From Nitrospirota bacterium (lineage in GTDB: Bacteria; Nitrospirota; UBA9217), in contig CAVVOB010000018.1 of the NCBI GenBank assembly GCA_963749655.1, forward strand, positions 128,001-192,000: 64,000 bases of DNA, written 5' to 3'. The notes under the pieces are model-generated. The model was not told where the DNA came from and searched no databases. It saw only the letters and a list, made by a program, of their open reading frames with translations. This document shows positions 2,804-13,137 of the stretch, in pieces (positions within the stretch are counted from its first letter, which is position 1; each line of letters begins with the position of its first letter). Made by a program: the position numbers and the translations under genes.

Positions 2804-5422
2804 TCATCGGCCCGTCACTTCTGCCGCGTCTGCAAGTTCGTACTTACCCTCGAGAAACGACCGGACGTAGCGCTCCACGGCCCTGTCGTCGTTCAGTACG
2901 GCGTCCAGCTGCCGGGTGTAGGAAAAGAGCCGGCCGAGCTGGTCGAGGACCTTTACGGCGTCCTCCTGCTGAATGTTCGCAAGCCGGGCAAGGATGAGGT
3001 CCCCTTTGGTTTTGATGTTGAATCCGTACTCCTCCAGGATCGCGGCGATGAGCTGCAGCCGCCGCGAGCGCTTGGTCATGTCGGTTGCGCCGCCGGCGAA
3101 GCGGAAATAGATGTGGTTGTTCCTTGCCTGTTCGCTGCAGAAGCAGTCCATGACTATGAAGTGATATCCGAACTTGAGACTGATATTGGCATATTCCCGG
3201 GAGATGACCGCCATGTTCTGCTCCACACGGCCTGCCGGGCCCGCTGTAATGTCCGGCACGCGGAGCATACTCGTCATGAAATCGTTCATCCCGAGGGGAA
3301 CTGCGTCGGAACGCCAGAGCCCCGGGAGCGTCATGCCGTTGATAACGGCACGGAGCGGAATGGAGGAGATCTGCCCGGCGGTTACCTGGTCGTGGTTTTC
3401 AGGATTGTCAACCCCTCCGCCGATGTCGATCAGCATGATGCCTGCGGGGACGGACAGGTCGAGTCTGACGGCTCCGGACCGGACGCCCCGGCGCGCCCCG
3501 TCGATCAGCGCCGCTACGGACTTTTCGTGGATGAAGCGAAGGACGTCGTGCAGAGTCCTGCAGGCCTTGGGTGTAAATTCATCCCGCAGGGGATCGACAA
3601 GGTTCAGCGGCGTGATGGAGCGAAGCAGATACCGCTTCCTGCGGAACTCGTAGACGTTTTCCATCCTGCGCGCGTTCCGGTCGGCCCGGGCGACCAGGTC
3701 GGGGACGATCCCGCCGTAGATCGCCGACCTGTTGTCGTCTCCGGCAACAACGGTGACGGGCTGCCCGTGCTTCAGGCTCTCGGTGGCCCCGGACAGACCC
3801 ACGATGGTCGGGATTCTCAGCTCCCGGCACAGCGCGGCCATGTGGCTTGTCTGCGACCCCCGCTCGGTGATGATGGCCGAAACGTAGGGCATGGTGGATG
3901 CAAAGAGGGATGAGTCGCTGGGCGCCACGAGGACGACGCCTTTGGGCAGGTTCAGGATGTCCGCCGGCTTTCTGACAATGAAGACCTTGCCTGCCCCGGT
4001 GCCGCGCTGCACCACGGTACCGCGGTCCTGCAGGAGGACGGGATGGGCGCCGGCTGGATCGAGGTTCGCGGTCCCATTGGCTGACGCAGGCGGGTCGCTT
4101 CTGTCTTGCACGGCCAGCGGCCGCGCCTGGAGTACGAAGAACTTCCCCCTGGAGTCAATGGCCCATTCGATGTCGCGCGCCGATCCAAAATACCGCTCGA
4201 TTGCCATGGCATGGCGGGCGACGGCCGCCGCCGTTTCCGGGGACAGACAGGTCCGGTCCCGGAGCTCCTCGGGAGTCCTGATCTCCTCCGTCTCCCCCTT
4301 CCCGGCCATGCGTATCATGGATTCCTTCCTGCCGGGGGTCACCCACTTGAGCACCGGTTCCTTCCTCTTGCTCACGACATAGAGGTCCGCTTCCGCCCGG
4401 CCCTCGACAACGGCCTCGCCCAGTCCCCAGACAGCATTGATGATCAGGGTGTTCGCATCGCCCTCCGGTGTCGTCGTATAGATGACGCCGCTCGATGCGG
4501 CATCGACCATGACCATGCAGGCCACTGCCATTCTCATGTCCCGGATGCCGTAGCCCAGGCGCGCCTGATAGGCCGCCGCCGGTTCCGAAAAAAGACTGGC
4601 GATCACTTTGCGGTAAGCCTTTTCGATCTCGCCGGGATCGAGGGGAACGTTCAGGACGGTCTCGAACTGTCCGGCAAAGGAGAAGTCTCCATCCTCTTCC
4701 CCGGCGCTGCTCCTGACGGCAAGGGAGCAGCCCTCGCCGCAGCGAGCACGAAGCTTCTTCACGGTCTTCTCGATGGCGCGGCTGACCGGGGCGGGCATCG
4801 TTCCGTGCAGCATCAGCTCGCGGATCTCGTGCAGTACGGACGGGAGGATCGGAGCGCCGGGCCCGGGAAGCGCGATCTTTTCGAAAATGCGGTTCTCCTG
4901 CAGAAAGGCATCGAAAGCGGCCGTGGTAACGGCAAAGGCATCGGGAACCGCGAGACCGATCGCATTGCGGACCTCTGCCAGGCTCGCGTTTTTCCCCCCG
5001 ACAACGCGCGTCATGTCGGCGGTTATCCTGTCGTAGGTCAAGATAAAGGGTTCTGAAGCCGAGGGGGTCTCGTCAATGACCGTCCGGATCCTTTCATCGA
5101 TCTCCCGAAACCGGCCCTCCAGGCCGCTGAAGCGGCGGCCGGTCAGGTCGGCGAAGAGCCGGAGCGAATTCTCCATCTCCGCCCGGAGACGGGAATAGGA
5201 GCCGTTGACATAGACAATGTCGAACAGGTAGTCACCGCCCAGTTTCTCGCCCATGTCCGTGATGGTTTCGAGCGCCCTGTTGTTGCTGTCGAGTACGCTC
5301 CGGAAGCGGTCGAAGAGGGCCCGGAACTCGGCCGGATCCGCCGACGCCTTCCCGCGGAAGAGCGTCCGGGACAGTGACGAGTAGAGTGTCTGTATGATCA
5401 TCGAATGTTTCATGGCACTCAT
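2804..5422 (-). CDS. PEP-synthase/dikinase-like protein: ATP-grasp (PPDK_N) + phospho-His swivel domain + unknown C-terminal domain
   Basis: VGGKNASLAE, LAVRSSAGEED, SFAGQFETVLNV, DIEWAID, LQARPL and GSQTSHMAALCRE; no PEP-binding TIM barrel. Confidence 0.88.
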   Translation of the reverse strand: MSAMKHSMIIQTLYSSLSRTLFRGKASADPAEFRALFDRFRSVLDSNNRALETITDMGEKLGGDYLFDIVYVNGSYSRLRAEMENSLRLFADLTGRRFSGLEGRFREIDERIRTVIDETPSASEPFILTYDRITADMTRVVGGKNASLAEVRNAIGLAVPDAFAVTTAAFDAFLQENRIFEKIALPGPGAPILPSVLHEIRELMLHGTMPAPVSRAIEKTVKKLRARCGEGCSLAVRSSAGEEDGDFSFAGQFETVLNVPLDPGEIEKAYRKVIASLFSEPAAAYQARLGYGIRDMRMAVACMVMVDAASSGVIYTTTPEGDANTLIINAVWGLGEAVVEGRAEADLYVVSKRKEPVLKWVTPGRKESMIRMAGKGETEEIRTPEELRDRTCLSPETAAAVARHAMAIERYFGSARDIEWAIDSRGKFFVLQARPLAVQDRSDPPASANGTANLDPAGAHPVLLQDRGTVVQRGTGAGKVFIVRKPADILNLPKGVVLVAPSDSSLFASTMPYVSAIITERGSQTSHMAALCRELRIPTIVGLSGATESLKHGQPVTVVAGDDNRSAIYGGIVPDLVARADRNARRMENVYEFRRKRYLLRSITPLNLVDPLRDEFTPKACRTLHDVLRFIHEKSVAALIDGARRGVRSGAVRLDLSVPAGIMLIDIGGGVDNPENHDQVTAGQISSIPLRAVINGMTLPGLWRSDAVPLGMNDFMTSMLRVPDITAGPAGRVEQNMAVISREYANISLKFGYHFIVMDCFCSEQARNNHIYFRFAGGATDMTKRSRRLQLIAAILEEYGFNIKTKGDLILARLANIQQEDAVKVLDQLGRLFSYTRQLDAVLNDDRAVERYVRSFLEGKYELADAAEVTGR

Positions 5423-5567: not shown

Positions 5568-5936
5568 TTATTTCGCCAGCGCCCGCTTGATTGATTCTTT
5601 CAATTCCTTGATCCTGACGGGTTTTGGGAAAAAATCATGCACGTCGCCGCGCAGCGCCTCGATGGCCGCGTCGAGGTTCGCAAAGGCGGTGATCATGATC
5701 ACCGTCGTCCCCGGGTATTCCCGTTTGACGGTCCGGAGAACCTCCATGCCGTCGATGCCTTTCATCTTGTAGTCGGTGACCACGACCTGAAATTTTTTTT
5801 CCTTCAGCCTGGCCAGGGCCGGTTCGGCGTTCAGGAAGGTCTCGACATCGTACCCTTCCTGTTCGAGCGACAGCTTCGCCATGTCGCCCACGATCTTTTC
5901 GTCGTCAATGACCATGATGCTGTATTTATCCATCAT
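5568..5936 (-). CDS. Single-domain response regulator (CheY-like)
   Basis: IMVIDDE, VVVTDYKM, MITAFA and FFPKP; start MMDKYS overlaps the kinase stop. Confidence 0.9.
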   Translation of the reverse strand: MMDKYSIMVIDDEKIVGDMAKLSLEQEGYDVETFLNAEPALARLKEKKFQVVVTDYKMKGIDGMEVLRTVKREYPGTTVIMITAFANLDAAIEALRGDVHDFFPKPVRIKELKESIKRALAK

Positions 5937-7338
5937 TCCTCTCCTCGTGGTGATATTTCGGCAGCTCGACGGTAAAGGTCGTGCCGACGCCCACCTTGCT
6001 CTCCACCCTGATCTCTCCTTTATGATTCTTAATGATACCATAGCTGACCGACAGCCCCAGACCCGTTCCGCCCTCGCCCTTGGTGCTGAAGAAAGGATCG
6101 AAAATGTGGGGCAAATACTCCGGTGGGATGCCCTTGCCCGTATCCTTGACCGTGACCTCGACGGTTTCGCCGCTCTTCCCCGGCCGCGACGCAATATAAA
6201 GCCTTCCGCCTGCGTTCATGGCCTGGACGGCGTTGGTGATGAGATTGACGAAGACCTGCTGGATCTGGTGTTCGTCGAGGGAGAGATGGGGCAGACCCTC
6301 TTCGAGATTCACCGTCGTCTCGATGTTCTGCACGTCGATCATGTTCTGGACCAGCGTGAGGGTCTTCTGGATGACGGCGTTGATATCCGCCTCCCTCGGA
6401 TTCGCGTCCTTGGGTTTGGAAAAATCCAGGAGGTTCTTGACGATCTTGCGGATCCTTTCCGTTTCAGCGTCGACCTTCAGCATGAACCCGCGCCGGTCCG
6501 TTTCGTCCAGGTTCCCGTACAGCTCGTCGTAGGTCTGCGCGATCATGGAGATGTTGTTCAGGGGATTTGTGATCTCATGCGCAACGCCCGCCGTAAGAAT
6601 GCCGAGGGAGGCCAGCTTCTTGGACTGGATGATCTCCTCTTCGCGGTGGGCAAGCTCCTCGGACATGGAATTGACGGCCGTGATGACCGAACCGAGCTCG
6701 TCGTTCGACCGGAACCCTTCGATGTGGTGGAAATTTCCTTCCGAAATGGACCGCGTCATCCGCTCGATCTCCCGCAGGGACCGCACGATCTTCTGCGAGA
6801 TGAAATGGCTGATCAGGAGCGCGGAAGCCAGGATCGCCCAGAAGGAAAAAATAAGGATGCGCTTCGAACTCAGGATGATGTCGTTCACGCGCCGCCGTTC
6901 GAGCTGGGTGATCGAGTCAGAATATTCTTTCAGCTTCCTGCCGTCAAGGCGGATCCTTGCCTCGAGATCCAGGCCCGGAGCATTTCCCCTCCCCGTTGCC
7001 CTGACGGCGTCCGCATAGGACCGGAGCAGGGCTTCCAGCTTCCGGAGGTCCGTTTCTCCGATCGCCGGGATGATGTCCCCTTTCGCCGATTCAAGGGTAG
7101 CCTGGGCTGAGGCGATTTTCCCCTGGATCTCCGCGAGCGCCTTTCTGTCGTGGTAGAGAAAATAGTTCTTTTCCGACAGGCGCATCTCGAGGAACGACGC
7201 GTTCAGATCGTCGGCGATCTCCACGAACCGCAGCTTCGTCAGGACCAGGTTCATGTTCTGAAAGGCGAAAAAGCCGATCAGGATGATGAAGGCCCCGTTG
7301 ATGACATTCGAGAGGATAAGCTTGTTTTCGATCTTCAT
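5926..7338 (-). CDS. Membrane sensor histidine kinase (2 TM, HAMP, HisKA, HATPase)
   Basis: GVAHEITNPL, NLITNAVQA, DTGKGI, GTGLGLS; periplasmic RLSEKNYFLY; start MKIENKL. Confidence 0.93.
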   Translation of the reverse strand: MKIENKLILSNVINGAFIILIGFFAFQNMNLVLTKLRFVEIADDLNASFLEMRLSEKNYFLYHDRKALAEIQGKIASAQATLESAKGDIIPAIGETDLRKLEALLRSYADAVRATGRGNAPGLDLEARIRLDGRKLKEYSDSITQLERRRVNDIILSSKRILIFSFWAILASALLISHFISQKIVRSLREIERMTRSISEGNFHHIEGFRSNDELGSVITAVNSMSEELAHREEEIIQSKKLASLGILTAGVAHEITNPLNNISMIAQTYDELYGNLDETDRRGFMLKVDAETERIRKIVKNLLDFSKPKDANPREADINAVIQKTLTLVQNMIDVQNIETTVNLEEGLPHLSLDEHQIQQVFVNLITNAVQAMNAGGRLYIASRPGKSGETVEVTVKDTGKGIPPEYLPHIFDPFFSTKGEGGTGLGLSVSYGIIKNHKGEIRVESKVGVGTTFTVELPKYHHEERNDG

Positions 7339-7467
7339 GAACAATTTAGCATAGTGCACGGCGCATGGTAACTTCCGCAAAGAGCATAGGGCATGGCGCA
7401 TGAAGAGAGGTATCCCTCTGCCCTCTGCCCTAACTCAAAACTAAAAACTAAGAACCAGAAACTGCTT

Positions 7468-8703
7468 TTATTCCGGGTACGCGATCCCCCGCGGGATCTC
7501 GGCCTGCTCCTTGCGCACGGGCCAGTACCAGAACATGCCGTCCGCCAGCATCAGGACCCCGGCCGCCATGAGCCATAAGTTGAAGGACGTGAGCAGTCCA
7601 AACCCGAAATAGCTGATGATGCCGATGCCGATGCTCAGGAAAGAAATGCCGGTCCGGATGAATGCGAGTCCGGTCCGTGCCCGGGAGTAAATCGTGCGGT
7701 AACAGGCTGCGATCGTACGCTGGGCCGCCAGAACGTTTCGCTCCCGCGCGAACATGGTCCGCGTCTTGCTGGACGGCGTCGGATTCAAATACGTGCTGTA
7801 GTCCGCCAGCAGGTCTCCCATCCGGGCAAGCATGGTTCCCTGGATCCGCCGTTCAAGCGCCGTATCTTCCGGCGAATGGTAATTCTCGAGAAACTGGATC
7901 GTGGCCGCGGTCACCTCCGCAAGAGTCTGGTTGCCCGGCGGCGTCATCCGGGATTTTCGCACATTGAGATAACCGGGAAGACCGTACAGGGCGATGATGA
8001 TGCCGATCGCAAGAACTGAAAAATAGAGATAGGGATTCGTGCTCGTGTTCTTTGACTGCAGCAAAGCATTCGAAAGGGCGATCGTACCCAGGCCCCACCG
8101 AAGAAAAGCGAGCCCGGTCCTGGCCTTCGCCAGATCGGTCCGGTAGCAGGCCATTCTCGTGCGCCATTGGGCCATGGTGTTTCTCCAGAATGCAAGGCCC
8201 GTCCGCTCGGTCCCGATCAGAAGACCCGGCCGTGCATGGAGATAGTCCTGGATGTACCCTTGAATGTCCGAATCGAGGGCGACACGAAACTCATAGCGTT
8301 CCGCCTTGATGAACTTTCTTACGTCCTCCCGCATCGCCGGGCTCTCGGGATTGCGCGCCGCGATCGTAACCAGACCCGACCGGTCCCTCATGACGGGCAT
8401 CCACTGGTACGACGAAAGGGAGTCCTGGCTGACGGCGGAGAGCAGTTCCGGAGGGATCGGCAGCCGTTCGTCGTACTCGATGGAGGCGCAGTGATAGTAC
8501 TCGGCAAGCGCCTCGAGCAGGTCCTGCTTGAACACGCCGAACTCCCGAATCAGCACCTTCTCGAGTTCTACTCCACGGGCCTGTGCCATTCCCCCCGCGT
8601 CTTCCAGTTCCGCCCGGCTCAGAATACCCCGGTCAACCAGAAGCGAGAACTCCGACTGCGGTCGGACGGGAGTGTTGACCACGTTTTCGATATCATTCTT
8701 CAT
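7468..8703 (-). CDS. GspE-N/MshEN-like domain + 2 DUF202-like membrane repeats
   Basis: N-terminal LLVDRGILSRAEL...LAEYYHCASIEYDE; two (L/M/F)AxxRTx heptad runs, each followed by 2 hydrophobic helices. Confidence 0.75.
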   Translation of the reverse strand: MKNDIENVVNTPVRPQSEFSLLVDRGILSRAELEDAGGMAQARGVELEKVLIREFGVFKQDLLEALAEYYHCASIEYDERLPIPPELLSAVSQDSLSSYQWMPVMRDRSGLVTIAARNPESPAMREDVRKFIKAERYEFRVALDSDIQGYIQDYLHARPGLLIGTERTGLAFWRNTMAQWRTRMACYRTDLAKARTGLAFLRWGLGTIALSNALLQSKNTSTNPYLYFSVLAIGIIIALYGLPGYLNVRKSRMTPPGNQTLAEVTAATIQFLENYHSPEDTALERRIQGTMLARMGDLLADYSTYLNPTPSSKTRTMFARERNVLAAQRTIAACYRTIYSRARTGLAFIRTGISFLSIGIGIISYFGFGLLTSFNLWLMAAGVLMLADGMFWYWPVRKEQAEIPRGIAYPE

Positions 8704-10336
8704 TGTGATTAAAAATAATCGTCCCCCAGGACAGGGCAGGCCTGCCGTAGTCCGGGACGGTTATCTCCATGTCTCCGTAGCAATAGGGGTACTCTTTTCT
8801 CATACGCTCGACCGGCACCATCCAGCGGTATCCGTCGACGATGAGAACAAGCCCGCCGACGATCAGCAGACCGTTGAAAATGGTCCAGCCCACGGAGGCC
8901 ACGCCGAAATAAACCAGGAGGCCCGCTCCCACCGACGTAATGCTCATGCCCGTCCTGATGTAGGCCAGTCCCGTCCGAGCAACGGCCATGATCGTGCGAA
9001 GCCTGGCCATGACGCCCCGGCGGTCGGCCAGCACGGTCCGCTCCAGTGCAACACCCGTCGTGCCCCAGATGCCGGGCATCTGGCTTGCAGTGACCGGCGG
9101 TCCGGCCTTGTCTTTCTTTGAACCCAAGCGTTTGTGGCCGGGAGGGAATACAAGATCCCAGATGGTCTCCTTGTTGAGCACGTCAAGAACGGACCGGTAG
9201 CCTTCAAGGCCTGCCTTGCGGCCCCCAAAGTACCAGTGGAACCCCTCCGCGGACATGAGAATGCCGGCGATGATCAGGGAAACGTCGAAGAACGTCCACC
9301 CGCTCGCTGAAAACTGTCTCAGGAGCCCGATGCCGAGGCCGGTGAAGGCAATGCCGGTCCTGGTAAAGGCCAGTCCCGTCCTGGCCCGGGCGAGCTTTGT
9401 CCGGTGGCCGGCAAGGGACGTCCGTTCCTCCGCCATATCGGTCCGGTCGCTGGCCAGAAATCTCCTTCTCATGACCGGGGAAAGGTTCTCCCATCCCGCC
9501 CTGAGTTCCGTTGCGCCCTCCATCTCTCCCGTGCGGCTGAAGGACGGATGTCCATTGATCAGATCATCGCGGAGAACGCAGCTGCCCCAGGTGGGATTCG
9601 TCCGCGCGCCGTCGATCGGTTTGCCGGCTATTCTTCTCGCAGGCAGGTACCACTTGATCCCGTCATAGACCATGATGATCCCCGCTACGAGGAGCGGCGC
9701 TTCCAGGGCCGCGTACCATCCCGCGCCGAGCACGCGCAGGAACAGGAGGGCGATCACGATGAACGAGACGCCGGTCCGGATAAAGGCGAGCCCGGTCCTG
9801 CCCTTCGCGAACAGGGTGCGGTAATGGGCATAGGTCGAGCGGCGGTAGGCAAAGAGCGTCCGCACGCGCGCAAGCGGCGTCCGTCCGCCGGAAATGCAGA
9901 AGTTGGGGTTTACGTCGAAATTGTGCTCTATGATGCGGATGAGGTCCGAGGGAAGAGCTACGCGGAAATCGATCTGTTCAACGCCGAGTGTCCGCTTGAT
10001 GTCTTCAGCCACACGAGGGTCATCAGGACGACAGGCGACGACTTCGGCCCGCCTCTCCCTGACCGAAAGAGGGAACCACAGGGCTTTCTTTTGATGTTCC
10101 AGGTCGAGCCTCAGAACGATAAAATAGGACGCGACGACGCCTTCGTCGAATTCAACGAAGGGAAGGCCGTAGTAGGCCGCCAGGCTTAAGAGGATCTCGT
10201 GCTTTGGTATGCCCTTGTTCACGAGGAGCTCTTCGATCGCTGCGCCGGACCCCTTCGCATCCTGCTCCAGCTTTGTCAGGTCCTCAAGCGGGAGCAATCC
10301 CCGCTTAACCAGCCTATGATATCTCATCACTTTCAT
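8693..10336 (-). CDS. GspE-N/MshEN-like domain + 3 DUF202-like membrane repeats (start uncertain, 10327-10450)
   Basis: N-terminal LVKRGLLPLEDL...LAAYYGLPFVEFD; three heptad runs ending RTGLA(F/Y)xRTG, each followed by 2 TM helices; overlaps the next gene by 11 nt. Confidence 0.75.
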   Translation of the reverse strand: MKVMRYHRLVKRGLLPLEDLTKLEQDAKGSGAAIEELLVNKGIPKHEILLSLAAYYGLPFVEFDEGVVASYFIVLRLDLEHQKKALWFPLSVRERRAEVVACRPDDPRVAEDIKRTLGVEQIDFRVALPSDLIRIIEHNFDVNPNFCISGGRTPLARVRTLFAYRRSTYAHYRTLFAKGRTGLAFIRTGVSFIVIALLFLRVLGAGWYAALEAPLLVAGIIMVYDGIKWYLPARRIAGKPIDGARTNPTWGSCVLRDDLINGHPSFSRTGEMEGATELRAGWENLSPVMRRRFLASDRTDMAEERTSLAGHRTKLARARTGLAFTRTGIAFTGLGIGLLRQFSASGWTFFDVSLIIAGILMSAEGFHWYFGGRKAGLEGYRSVLDVLNKETIWDLVFPPGHKRLGSKKDKAGPPVTASQMPGIWGTTGVALERTVLADRRGVMARLRTIMAVARTGLAYIRTGMSITSVGAGLLVYFGVASVGWTIFNGLLIVGGLVLIVDGYRWMVPVERMRKEYPYCYGDMEITVPDYGRPALSWGTIIFNHNEE

Positions 10337-10575
10337 CTTTTTCAGGATCGAATGATCACGCAACTGAGTGGGGGCAGGGCCTCGCTTCGGCCGGTCGGCA
10401 ACGGTCGGAAAGAATGGGAAGAGGCGCAAAGGCCTCTTCCCCATGCACATAACGGGGGATGTCTGCTGCCCGTACTCGGCAGCCGTGCAAAGAACAAAAC
10501 CTCGTATTATTCCAGTCGAGAAACCGGAACAGTCCGGGTCACACCTTCTTCGTTGTCGCGGTCCGAGCGAGCACC

Positions 10576-10767
10576 TCAGGCCTGTTTGCCGTCCTTGCGC
10601 TCGCTTGCCGACGGTCCGTCCTGGCCGTCCTTCATGGCCTTTTTGAATTCCCTGATGCCCCTGCCAAGGCCCTCTCCGAGCTCGGGGAGCTTTCCCGGAC
10701 CGAATATGATCAGTACGATAAAAAGGATCAGCAGCAGATGCATCGGTTGAAACATTCCTTCAAACAT
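10576..10767 (-). CDS. tatA: Twin-arginine translocase subunit TatA/E
   Basis: [26 protein letters not shown] signature. Confidence 0.92.
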
Positions 10768-11474: not shown

Positions 11475-12338
11475 TCACTTCACGATCAATATCGGACAGG
11501 AGGCATGAGCAATGACCCGCTCCGCCGTACTGCCCATGAGCGCCTTGTTGACCCCGCGCCAGCCGTGCGTTCCGACGACGATCAGGTCGTGATCCTTTGT
11601 CTCGGCCGCTTCGACGATCTTGTCTCCCGAGTGGCCTTCCATGACCGAGGTCGTTACCTCGACGCCCAGCCCCGAGGCGATGCCCCGGGCGACGGCGACG
11701 ATCTTATCCGCTTCCTGCATCAGGCTTTTCCTGACAGCGTCGGTCTTGAAAAAGTCCATCATCTCTTCGTAGCGAGGGATCACATAGAGGACCGATACTT
11801 TTGCTCCGTCCACCTTTGACAGGGCACAGGCCCGGGTCAGCGCTTTCCTGCTCGATTCCGAGCCGTCGAAGGGCACGAGCAGGGAGCGGTAGTTGCCGCT
11901 GCATTTCGAGCAGGGCCGCTTCACTACGAGCACGTCGCAGGGCGCGCTGAGGATGACCTGCGAGGTCACGCTGCCCATGAGCAGCCGCTTCAGGCCCTTC
12001 CTGCCGTAGGTGCCGAGGGCGATCAGGTCCGCATGATTCGTCTCCGCTGTTTCCACGAGCACCTGGGGAGGCTCTCCCTGGCAGACGAACGAATCGACAT
12101 TGCCGTTCAAACCGAATTCATCATGGATCCCGGTTTTTGCCCGCCGGCAGATCTGCGTGCCGATCTCGAAGCGTTGTTCCATCTGAGAGGGCAGGATTGC
12201 GAACTCCTCCTGGTCGAAATAGACCGCATGGACCAGGAAAAGCTTCCCTCCGTGTTGTTTTATCCAGAGCGACGATTCTTTGACCGCCGCTTTGCTCGAT
12301 TCCGACTCGTCGAATCCGACCACGATGGTGTTATACAT
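11475..12338 (-). CDS. Tandem universal stress protein
   Basis: Two USP domains, GTYGRKGLKRLLMGSV and GTHGWRGVNKALMGST. Confidence 0.92.
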   Translation of the reverse strand: MYNTIVVGFDESESSKAAVKESSLWIKQHGGKLFLVHAVYFDQEEFAILPSQMEQRFEIGTQICRRAKTGIHDEFGLNGNVDSFVCQGEPPQVLVETAETNHADLIALGTYGRKGLKRLLMGSVTSQVILSAPCDVLVVKRPCSKCSGNYRSLLVPFDGSESSRKALTRACALSKVDGAKVSVLYVIPRYEEMMDFFKTDAVRKSLMQEADKIVAVARGIASGLGVEVTTSVMEGHSGDKIVEAAETKDHDLIVVGTHGWRGVNKALMGSTAERVIAHASCPILIVK

Positions 12339-13137
12339 CAGTGAGAACCTCCGCCTTTCCTGAACACCAGCCCCACGCCGAAACCTGCTACCAGGGCGAT
12401 GCCGATGGAGAGGACACCGTAGAGAGCCGCGCTGTTCTTGGCCATGTTCGCCAGGGCCTTGACCATGCCGACCTGCTCCACATTCACCTTGGACTCGGCC
12501 TGCTCGATGACCTTGCCGTTCTTGACCGCGTAGACCGTGACAAGGTAATCGCCGGGCGCGGCCTGGTAGGGCCAGTCGGTCACGATGGAATACTCCTGCC
12601 TGCCTTTGTCGTTCCGGTCGTCGTGATCTTGCCGTAGGACGTGACGTAGACCTTCGAGTCCTCCTTGAACTTCACGAACTCGTTGAACCACGTCGCTTTG
12701 TCCGCTTCGTTCGAAAGCGGATTGATCTCGACATGCTTCTGGAGAGAAGGATACCCGATCACGAATCTGTCCCTCTCTTCAGGGCTGAGGATATCCTCCA
12801 CCTTCTTAGTGCTGAAGACTTCGTAAAAATTCGGCGTGTTCTCGAACTTCAGCTGCCCCACGTTCATCCAGAGCGCACCCGCCACCTTGCCCTTCTGTTT
12901 CAGAACCTGGTGCCCCTCGGGCGATGCGATCTTGATGACCAGGTCCATGTTGGGGTCCGATTCTCCCCTGACGGACACGGTGCTGCCGTGATAGAAGAAG
13001 TCGACGGTGATGTGGTCATGGTTCGCCTTGGCCGTCAGCATGGCCGAAGCAGTGTTCGCCATTCCAAAAGTAATGATAAGCGCCAATACGGCGATCATCA
13101 TAATTCCGCATTCCGCATTCCGAATTCCGAATTTCAT
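12338..13137 (-). CDS. TIGR02186-like membrane protein, partner of TauE; frameshift near 12600-12630
   Basis: ITVDFFYHGSTVSVRG and KGKVAGALWMN in one frame; PGDYLVTVYAVKNG and a C-terminal TM ending FRKGGGSH in another; directly downstream of TauE. Confidence 0.8.

Follow-up and report, generated by a model that had tools for sequence, protein, structure and literature searches.

Here we describe a pair of overlapping genes, A and B, in a 64,000-nucleotide stretch of DNA from a Nitrospirota bacterium (contig CAVVOB010000018.1, positions 128,001 to 192,000; hereafter the window), whose products combine an N-terminal domain of the MshEN fold with tandem membrane modules related to DUF202 and would together build a five-membered helical ring. 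The two minus-strand open reading frames (ORFs), 8693..10450 and 7468..8703, share an 11-nt overlap, and the ATG at 10336 is the likely start of A because nearly all A homologues are about 547 amino acids (aa) long. The same start had been chosen in an earlier note on this DNA, which described two overlapping genes with an MshEN-like domain apiece, followed by three membrane modules in one product and two in the other. Pfam bears this description out, with both families above their cut-offs: MshEN is matched at residues 56-141 of A (3.3e-10) and 79-158 of B (1.6e-12), and DUF202 (PF02656) at three stretches of A (4.6e-15, 56.3 bits against a cut-off of 23.4) and two stretches of B (3.5e-6, 27.8 bits against the same cut-off). 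Four of the five modules also exceed the DUF202 cut-off in a six-frame search of the genome. In databases, homologues of A and B carry the labels 'DUF202 domain-containing', 'YidH family' and 'type II secretion protein'. The features of the pair, all on the minus strand, are as follows.

8693..10336 (-): gene A, 547 aa; MshEN-fold domain, three stalk-hairpin modules and a conserved C-terminal tail
9914..10336 (-): A residues 1-141, N-terminal MshEN/GSPII-fold domain
9629..9901 (-): A module 1, residues 146-236; heptad Arg 152-187; helix 152-203 and return helix 209-237
9203..9469 (-): A module 2, residues 290-378; heptad Arg 291-326; helices 287-341 and 348-387
8789..9064 (-): A module 3, residues 425-516; heptad Arg 433-461; helices 428-477 and 482-515
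8696..8788 (-): A C-terminal tail, residues 517-547, with the conserved motif PYCYGDMEIxxPDYG
7468..8703 (-): gene B, 411 aa; MshEN-fold domain and two stalk-hairpin modules
8230..8703 (-): B residues 1-158, MshEN-fold domain
7936..8226 (-): B module 1, residues 160-256; heptad Arg 167-202
7498..7782 (-): B module 2, residues 308-402; heptad Arg 315-350

Aligned pairwise, the five modules share 36-41% identity, and the Ala and Arg of a repeated heptad, L-A-x-x-R-T-x, occupy the invariant columns. A profile built from the five finds exactly five matches in the window's genome (E 1e-36 to 1e-43). Every module holds five to six heptads whose arginines keep a strict 7-residue register, in agreement with the at least five per module counted previously, and is composed of one 50-55-residue helix, which includes both the stalk and the first transmembrane (TM) helix (TM1), and one return helix. 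Hydropathy and AlphaFold2 concur on this assignment of two TM helices per module, which had likewise been proposed, and the periplasmic loops of the modules are only a few residues long. The AlphaFold2 model of A, made from a 78-sequence alignment, has a mean predicted local distance difference test score (pLDDT) of 81.4 and a predicted template modelling score of 0.71, and the tail motif of A consists of near-invariant columns across the same alignment. The anatomy of A and B and its conservation are matters of direct observation. What appears to be new is the 3+2 tandem-module architecture of DUF202/VTC type with MshEN-fold domains, of which we found no published description, as the earlier note had surmised. 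No literature treating DUF202 and MshEN together was found, with the proviso that the supplementary MshEN list of Wang et al. 2016 may hold such fusions; this architecture was not found among the listed papers on DUF202 or YidH, judged by titles and abstract openings, and among the listed papers joining DUF202 with polyphosphate none was bacterial in this sense.

The arrangement of the five modules was addressed by predicting the complex of full-length A and B at 1:1 with family alignments, alongside three controls, with a contact list as the output. The prediction supports binding of the two proteins, short of demonstrating it: the interface score ipSAE reached 0.75, 0.79 and 0.79 for the pair compared with 0.00 for the best control, with 312-335 contacts, a partner pLDDT of 68-70 and at least 76% contact agreement between runs. 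The mark applied to this score is passed by 58 of 80 solved complexes and by 2 of 110 mismatched pairs, counts that serve only as a rough guide here because we supplied our own alignments. In the model, the stalk and TM1 of A module 1 (152-202) pack on B module 2 (310-364), parallel and in register (A163-B325, A170-B332 and A177-B339), and A module 3 (418-476) packs on B module 1 (162-217) through contacts such as A436-B171, A443-B182 and A457-B192. Residues 291-395 of A, which include all of module 2, make zero contacts with B; the return helices of B lie outside the A-B interface, and A residues 513-533, in the region of the tail, sit at the interface with B.

This contact pattern, with A module 2 free of B, suggests a closed ring of pseudo-five-fold symmetry, in which the five stalk-hairpin modules would follow one another as A1-A2-A3-B1-B2 and the return helices would lie on the outside, in agreement with the earlier proposal that a 1:1 heterodimer closes a five-helix ring. 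The products of the translationally coupled genes would assemble at 1:1. The heptad Ala and Arg positions are interface residues on both chains in the model and would therefore face the core. Read in this way, the ring holds five complete layers of Arg and a sixth with four, 29 Arg altogether, in alternation with layers of Ala. In each layer, the register Arg is kept in 77-78 of the 78 sequences of the A family and in 71-72 of the 72 of the B family, and the Ala paired with it in 60-78 family sequences. Summed over the five 40-residue stalks, the net charge is +34. The stalk register goes on inside the membrane as Ser, Ala or Gly, and then as Arg or polar residues near the outer face. We envisage the five long inner helices as a parallel coiled coil extending about six heptads into the cytoplasm (~60 Å by helix geometry), with a core of alternating Ala and Arg rings, before crossing the membrane as a bundle lined by Ser, Gly and Ala and surrounded by the second helices of the hairpins. 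On the strength of the model and of the comparative genomics below, we consider the pseudo-pentameric ring, taken by itself, to be probable.

The five-module profile was searched against 301 genomes of the window's phylum, including the window's own (G000). Matches occur in 68 genomes, 46 of which have exactly five strong matches, while 17 have one weak match each that we take to be ordinary DUF202. Among the five other strong-match genomes, contig ends truncate the counts of G257 and G076, two complete 3+2 loci are present in G287, and the six matches of G281 comprise a 3+2 locus and one unplaced match; G085 (one match, E 5.5e-20) lay outside the gene-level resolution. In the gene-level set of this phylum, 15 loci from 13 genomes with the window compared beside them, a three-module gene is always followed directly by an overlapping two-module gene. 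A second phylum (Desulfobacterales-type), entered by way of a fused relative described below, has modules in 19 of 401 genomes: four genomes with five matches, twelve with one single-module gene, one with two separate single-module genes, G304 with a 3+2 set and one single-module gene, and G422 with six matches on two contigs that look like fragmented 3+2 sets. A further genome, G305, from a separate five-genome search, combines a 3+2 set with a single-module fusion. Where loci of the second phylum were resolved (8 loci in 7 genomes), the two-module gene is preceded either by the last modules of a gene that leaves the locus or by a whole three-module gene.

Across the two phyla, all 19 resolved multi-module loci have the three-module gene first and the two-module gene second, save where a contig end interrupts them, and the only other form in the two phylum samples is the single-module gene. 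The expectation that module totals always come to five thus stands for the multi-module loci but not for the family as a whole, in which homologues also occur singly; this fits a homopentamer, and a single-module gene does not refute the pentamer because five copies of it would be needed. A profile search of 1.84 billion representatives returned 1753 matches, and among the best 150, which were inspected, no protein exceeds three full-length modules; entries showing additional matched stretches are single-module proteins whose heptad arrays are long, one protein of three ordinary DUF202 units, and unrelated coiled coils. Proteins consisting of MshEN and one module were considered as a real architecture and rejected, since most end in frameshift-like tails or at contig ends. 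Separately, the ESM Atlas holds a 322-aa MshEN/DUF202 cluster from Thermodesulfobacteriota (score 0.78), which we note as a lead only.

In a quick maximum-likelihood tree of 108 modules, the modules group by position into five separate clades that span both phyla, with support of 98 for A1, 99 for A2, 99 for A3, 100 for B1 and 97 for B2; two rows from truncated genes fall within A1 and A3. The five positions are thus old and non-interchangeable, and the pair duplicates and travels as a unit, all of which fits an assembly with five positions. An alternative is that five is an incidental number and that A and B form homo-oligomers, 2:2 rings of ten, or filaments. The complex model covers the 1:1 pair only, tandem helical hairpins can give rings of widely differing size (the closest matches by structure being designed toroids and barrels with various repeat numbers), and vertical inheritance or transfer of one operon would keep the 3+2 arrangement without any constraint. 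Nonetheless, both ends of A meet both modules of B in the 1:1 model, which leaves no free edge; the module positions are separate ancient clades, the inspected representatives stop at three full modules, no two- or three-module gene stands without its partner in the 19 resolved loci (contig-end cases aside), and in G287 the pair has been duplicated as a unit. We therefore regard an incidental five as decidedly unlikely.

How such a ring might function is best approached through its relatives. YidH-type DUF202 proteins are about 115 aa long, with one unit, few heptads and three TM helices, and to our knowledge no function is known for them; they have in common with A and B the Pfam family match and an RT..LA..RT motif ahead of the first TM helix. 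The statement that DUF202 proteins have only 2-3 heptads is borne out for ordinary members, which have few, but not for the single-module relatives described below, which have up to about 36. In the available text of one study, E. coli yidH was a candidate in a screen for D-alanine export, and the transport assay was without effect.

A closer parallel is offered by the yeast VTC complex, for which the available text of two reports (PMC9911596; bioRxiv 2023.01.27.525886) gives a 3:1:1 pentamer (Vtc1:Vtc3:Vtc4) of three-TM units whose TM1 helices line a polyphosphate channel with two basic rings 7 residues apart (K24/R31-type), in line with the earlier note's account of a pentamer of DUF202 units whose helices form the pore; a further source, as far as its text was available, has pfam02656 annotation on VTC-type proteins (PMC12388464). 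VTC and A/B resemble each other in having five DUF202-type units in a pseudo-symmetric ring, which for A/B is modelled, and in placing the first helix on the axis with basic residues 7 apart, an orientation that for A/B is suggested by the contacts. They differ in that VTC uses five separate chains, three TM helices per unit and two basic rings, whereas A/B would use two chains (3+2), two TM helices per unit and five to six Arg rings, and in that VTC carries a TTM polymerase and SPX on top, whereas A/B carries MshEN-fold domains and a cytoplasmic stalk of about six heptads. Scanned with Pfam, A, B and 16 proteins encoded nearby show neither TTM nor SPX, consistent with the earlier observation that no VTC catalytic gene is adjacent. 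We consider the resemblance to VTC strong in principle, as an analogy that stops short of VTC membership.

By this analogy with the VTC DUF202 pentamer, the arginine ladder may bind and pass an anionic substrate, and the MshEN-fold domains, together with the histidine kinase and receiver pair and the phosphoenolpyruvate (PEP)-synthase-like dikinase encoded nearby, would act on the cytoplasmic end of the stalk. Conduction, cargo and regulation are what we infer from these likenesses, and the joint claim of a pseudo-pentameric ring that also conducts anions, our leading explanation, is one we put forward tentatively, as somewhat less probable than its negation. Several considerations weigh against it. 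The ring was read from the contact list of a single predictor, whose output may in part echo VTC. With five like charges in each layer, counter-ions would be required unless the Arg side chains point outward, and the Gly/Ala/Ser membrane core could equally reflect tight packing without a pore. A role as ion conduit is difficult to envisage for single-module relatives whose stalks reach ~36 heptads. When the module profile was compared with solved chains, VTC included, no relevant match was returned (best E 0.11, a TetR protein), and the membrane part of the A model matches only ABC-exporter and designed helical-repeat folds (Z 10-12), below the noise mark for helical proteins. The 3+2 loci may descend from one transferred operon and are therefore not independent proof, and the singletons P0253 and P0284, on short contigs, look like A-type proteins with fewer modules, as would arise through module loss by recombination between repeats. 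The Foldseek likeness to VTC or CorA that had been suggested as a check did not emerge, both being absent from the matches listed for the A model, which excludes nothing.

The N-terminal domains place the modules in a regulatory setting. The first 140 residues of the A model match MshE with bound cyclic di-GMP (c-di-GMP; 5htl_B) at Z 14.4 and a root-mean-square deviation of 3.1 Å over 138 residues, the N-domain of XpsE at Z 13.2, and the GSPII-B domain of PilF with a Foldseek E of 4.6e-5; the structural matches also include the PilB N-domain with PilZ, and the fold serves protein docking as well. According to the available text of Wang et al. 2016 (PMC5013675), c-di-GMP binding in MshEN is defined by a tandem 24-residue RLGxx...Q motif. 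Neither the strict nor the relaxed form of this motif was found in any of the 78 A-family or 72 B-family sequences; the closest approach by a single motif satisfies 8 of 11 constrained positions, and B scores 18.1 bits against the NCBIfam c-di-GMP motif model, whose cut-off is 38, with a similarly weak match to the PilB N-terminus. Given the absence of the motif, we call these MshEN-fold domains and make no claim of c-di-GMP binding; binding through the canonical motif was rejected on the motif scan, and another binding mode may exist. The view that two regulatory domains cap the assembly thus retains its fold and loses its canonical ligand motif. In MshE, PilF and XpsE the domain shares its fold with that of A, and Pfam MshEN is above cut-off in A and B, but those proteins fuse it to a secretion ATPase, whereas A and B fuse it to membrane modules and do not have the canonical motif.

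The following genes flank the pair in the window.

5926..7401 (-): sensor histidine kinase (HAMP-HisKA-HATPase_c by Pfam), downstream partner
5568..5960 (-): receiver-only response regulator (Response_reg 9.2e-27), likely start near 5942
2804..5422 (-): PEP-synthase-like dikinase with ATP-grasp and phospho-His swivel domains and a C-terminal domain of ~300 aa
10854..14066 (-): TauE permease, Alph_Pro_TM gene (split), double universal stress protein (USP) gene and single USP gene by Pfam, upstream and often conserved with the pair

On the minus strand the order in the window is TauE, Alph_Pro_TM, double USP, USP, TatA, A, B, HAMP histidine kinase, receiver and dikinase. The run A-B-kinase-receiver-dikinase recurs in 9 of the 15 loci resolved in the window's phylum, and one more has the kinase and receiver before its contig ends; the remainder comprise two loci with A-B-receiver, one with A-B-kinase, one with A-B only and one cut at A. 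Receiver identity across the phylum is 78-89%. TauE and Alph_Pro_TM with at least one USP gene stand directly upstream of A in 6 of the 15 loci, with a variant set in a seventh. The neighbours singled out at the outset, TauE, USP genes and a dikinase, are thus all present and the dikinase is conserved, but the truly conserved set consists of the histidine kinase, the receiver and the dikinase. Of the two full 3+2 loci of G287 (L041 and L042), one has the kinase, receiver and dikinase and the other the kinase only.

Further observations concern the upstream genes. The Alph_Pro_TM gene (12338-13137, minus strand) is represented by two overlapping ORFs that match profile positions 2-147 and 149-227, and its orthologue in locus L035 is one 262-aa ORF matching 2-227; the split is probably a frameshift, whether real or a sequencing error. 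A TatA/E gene (10576-10767, minus strand; 63 aa, Pfam 1.7e-19) lies between the USP gene and A, and in loci L035, L039 and L048 the USP gene adjoins A, with no space for it. Beyond these genes, the segment 14878-24704 (minus strand) contains two more cassettes, each pairing a sigma-54 response regulator with a histidine kinase, as well as a second TauE accompanied by a USP gene; this region is a cluster of similar regulated permease units. A scan for sigma-54 consensus promoters gave 21 matches compared with 27.9 expected by chance, none of them upstream of A.

The single-module genes, which come from Desulfobacterales-type genomes, encode the same hairpin and heptad and match the module profile at 80-98 bits; their products lack an MshEN domain and would need to assemble as homo-oligomers. 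Their stalks run from 10 to about 36 heptads, with 15 to about 36 LAxxRT repeats in P0263, P0268 and the ORFs of L145-L149. In the latter loci (for example L149:1438-2586, minus strand), 20 to about 36 LAxxRT heptads are consecutive, and by helix geometry such a stalk would measure tens of nm. In P0274 and in 12 Desulfobacterales-type loci, a single module is fused to a C-terminal receiver of the same type as that of the window. In all 11 of these loci with downstream flank (L051-L061), the stalk-hairpin-receiver fusion is followed directly by a dikinase of ~855 aa that aligns with the window's dikinase over 94-97% of its length at 30-33% identity. Because the connection is made by fusion in one phylum and by neighbouring genes in the other, the linkage of module, receiver and dikinase holds in two architectures. 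L051 and L055 also carry an additional cluster with Alph_Pro_TM, a dikinase and a receiver, preceded by TauE in L055 and cut at that point by the locus end in L051. In the P0352 cluster (623 aa, three assemblies), one ORF spans the hairpin, a partial receiver and the dikinase, which may be a real fusion, a shared deletion or a gene-call artefact.

These associations bear on a reading in which the ring does not conduct. It could instead be a signalling or scaffolding device, a membrane-anchored five-helix stalk that positions or controls the receiver and dikinase in the manner of coiled-coil sensor transmitters, with an Arg/Ala core that serves packing or binds lipid head groups or a cytoplasmic polyanion. 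The modules are joined to signalling parts throughout, to MshEN-fold domains in the pair and to a fused receiver in P0274 and the 12 loci, and kinase and receiver genes follow the A-B pair in 10 of 15 loci; the periplasmic loops are a few residues long, small residues make up the membrane core, and the 20-36-heptad stalks of the single-module relatives are balanced in charge. Such long, charge-balanced stalks fit a sheath or scaffold more readily than an ion path, and the non-conducting reading therefore keeps substantial weight. Set against it, the sole solved DUF202 assembly is a channel with its pore at the same 7-spaced basic positions, and 29 near-invariant core Arg and a net charge of +34 exceed the needs of a purely structural coiled coil. 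On balance we think a non-conducting device unlikely, albeit a serious contender to the anion-conducting ring.

A further possibility concerns the dikinase, which matches PPDK_N (1.1e-74) and PEP-utilizers (1.3e-18) in Pfam and, across residues 126-574, aligns with the PEP synthase 2ols_A (1e-58). Solved PEP synthases and NCBIfam models alike cease to match near residue 580. For the C-terminal domain beyond, a profile search of solved structures, Foldseek and a wide structural search were all uninformative: a model of residues 570-872 has no Foldseek match at E<=0.001, and its best Z, 7.9, is to ferredoxin-like folds. This domain (2807-3715, minus strand) has invariant H56, D57, R60, H63 and E64 (fragment numbering) and an ACT/ferredoxin-like subdomain. 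The dikinase might make or prime polyphosphate or another linear, phosphate-rich polymer and feed it into the Arg/Ala five-helix tube for export, which would make the system a prokaryotic, non-homologous counterpart of the VTC synthase-translocase. A linear polyanion suits an arginine ladder, and the dikinase gene comes directly after the module gene in every single-module locus with flank and lies within the cluster in 9 of 15 3+2 loci. However, nothing ties the dikinase to a polymerase, its C-terminal domain is without an informative match, and TTM and SPX were not found among the scanned neighbours.

The distribution of polyphosphate kinases (PPK) can be argued both ways. PPK1 occurs in 51 of 301 genomes of the phylum and in 1 of 63 of the window's family, and was not found in the window's genome (86.6% complete); none of the 64 family genomes searched for PPK2, the window's among them, yielded a match. 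This near-absence would require a non-canonical source, such as the dikinase, if the cells make polyphosphate at all, but it may simply mean that they make none, and it is independent of the pair, holding with or without A-B. An anticorrelation of PPK1 with the pair was considered and rejected, because the pattern follows lineage, PPK1 being nearly missing family-wide. Overall, we rate a dikinase-fed polymer conduit as very improbable; if it were true, the single-module relatives, with stalks on the 30-nm scale, would serve as extended sheaths for that polymer.

For the anion-conducting ring, these data bear on the nature of the cargo. Polyphosphate, which had been listed among the possible substrates, is weakened by the lack of PPK1 and PPK2 in the lineage, and this lack counts mildly against a polyphosphate version of the ring unless the dikinase is an unrecognised source. 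Given the TauE neighbour and the sulfate-reducing context, sulfur oxyanions are a reasonable alternative.

Bacterial DUF202 proteins are common, and we know of none with a known function. The A-B pair represents a DUF202 form of fixed stoichiometry that should suit expression and structure determination, and because each of the five ring positions has a sequence of its own, the oligomeric state and the pore are directly testable. A coiled coil with five to six stacked Arg rings in its core would be an unusual structure. If a substrate is carried, the pair would define a previously unrecognised class of regulated route for anions or polyanions in sulfate-reducing Nitrospirota and Desulfobacterota, and its tight link to a receiver and a dikinase points to a whole uncharacterised module of membrane physiology in these bacteria.

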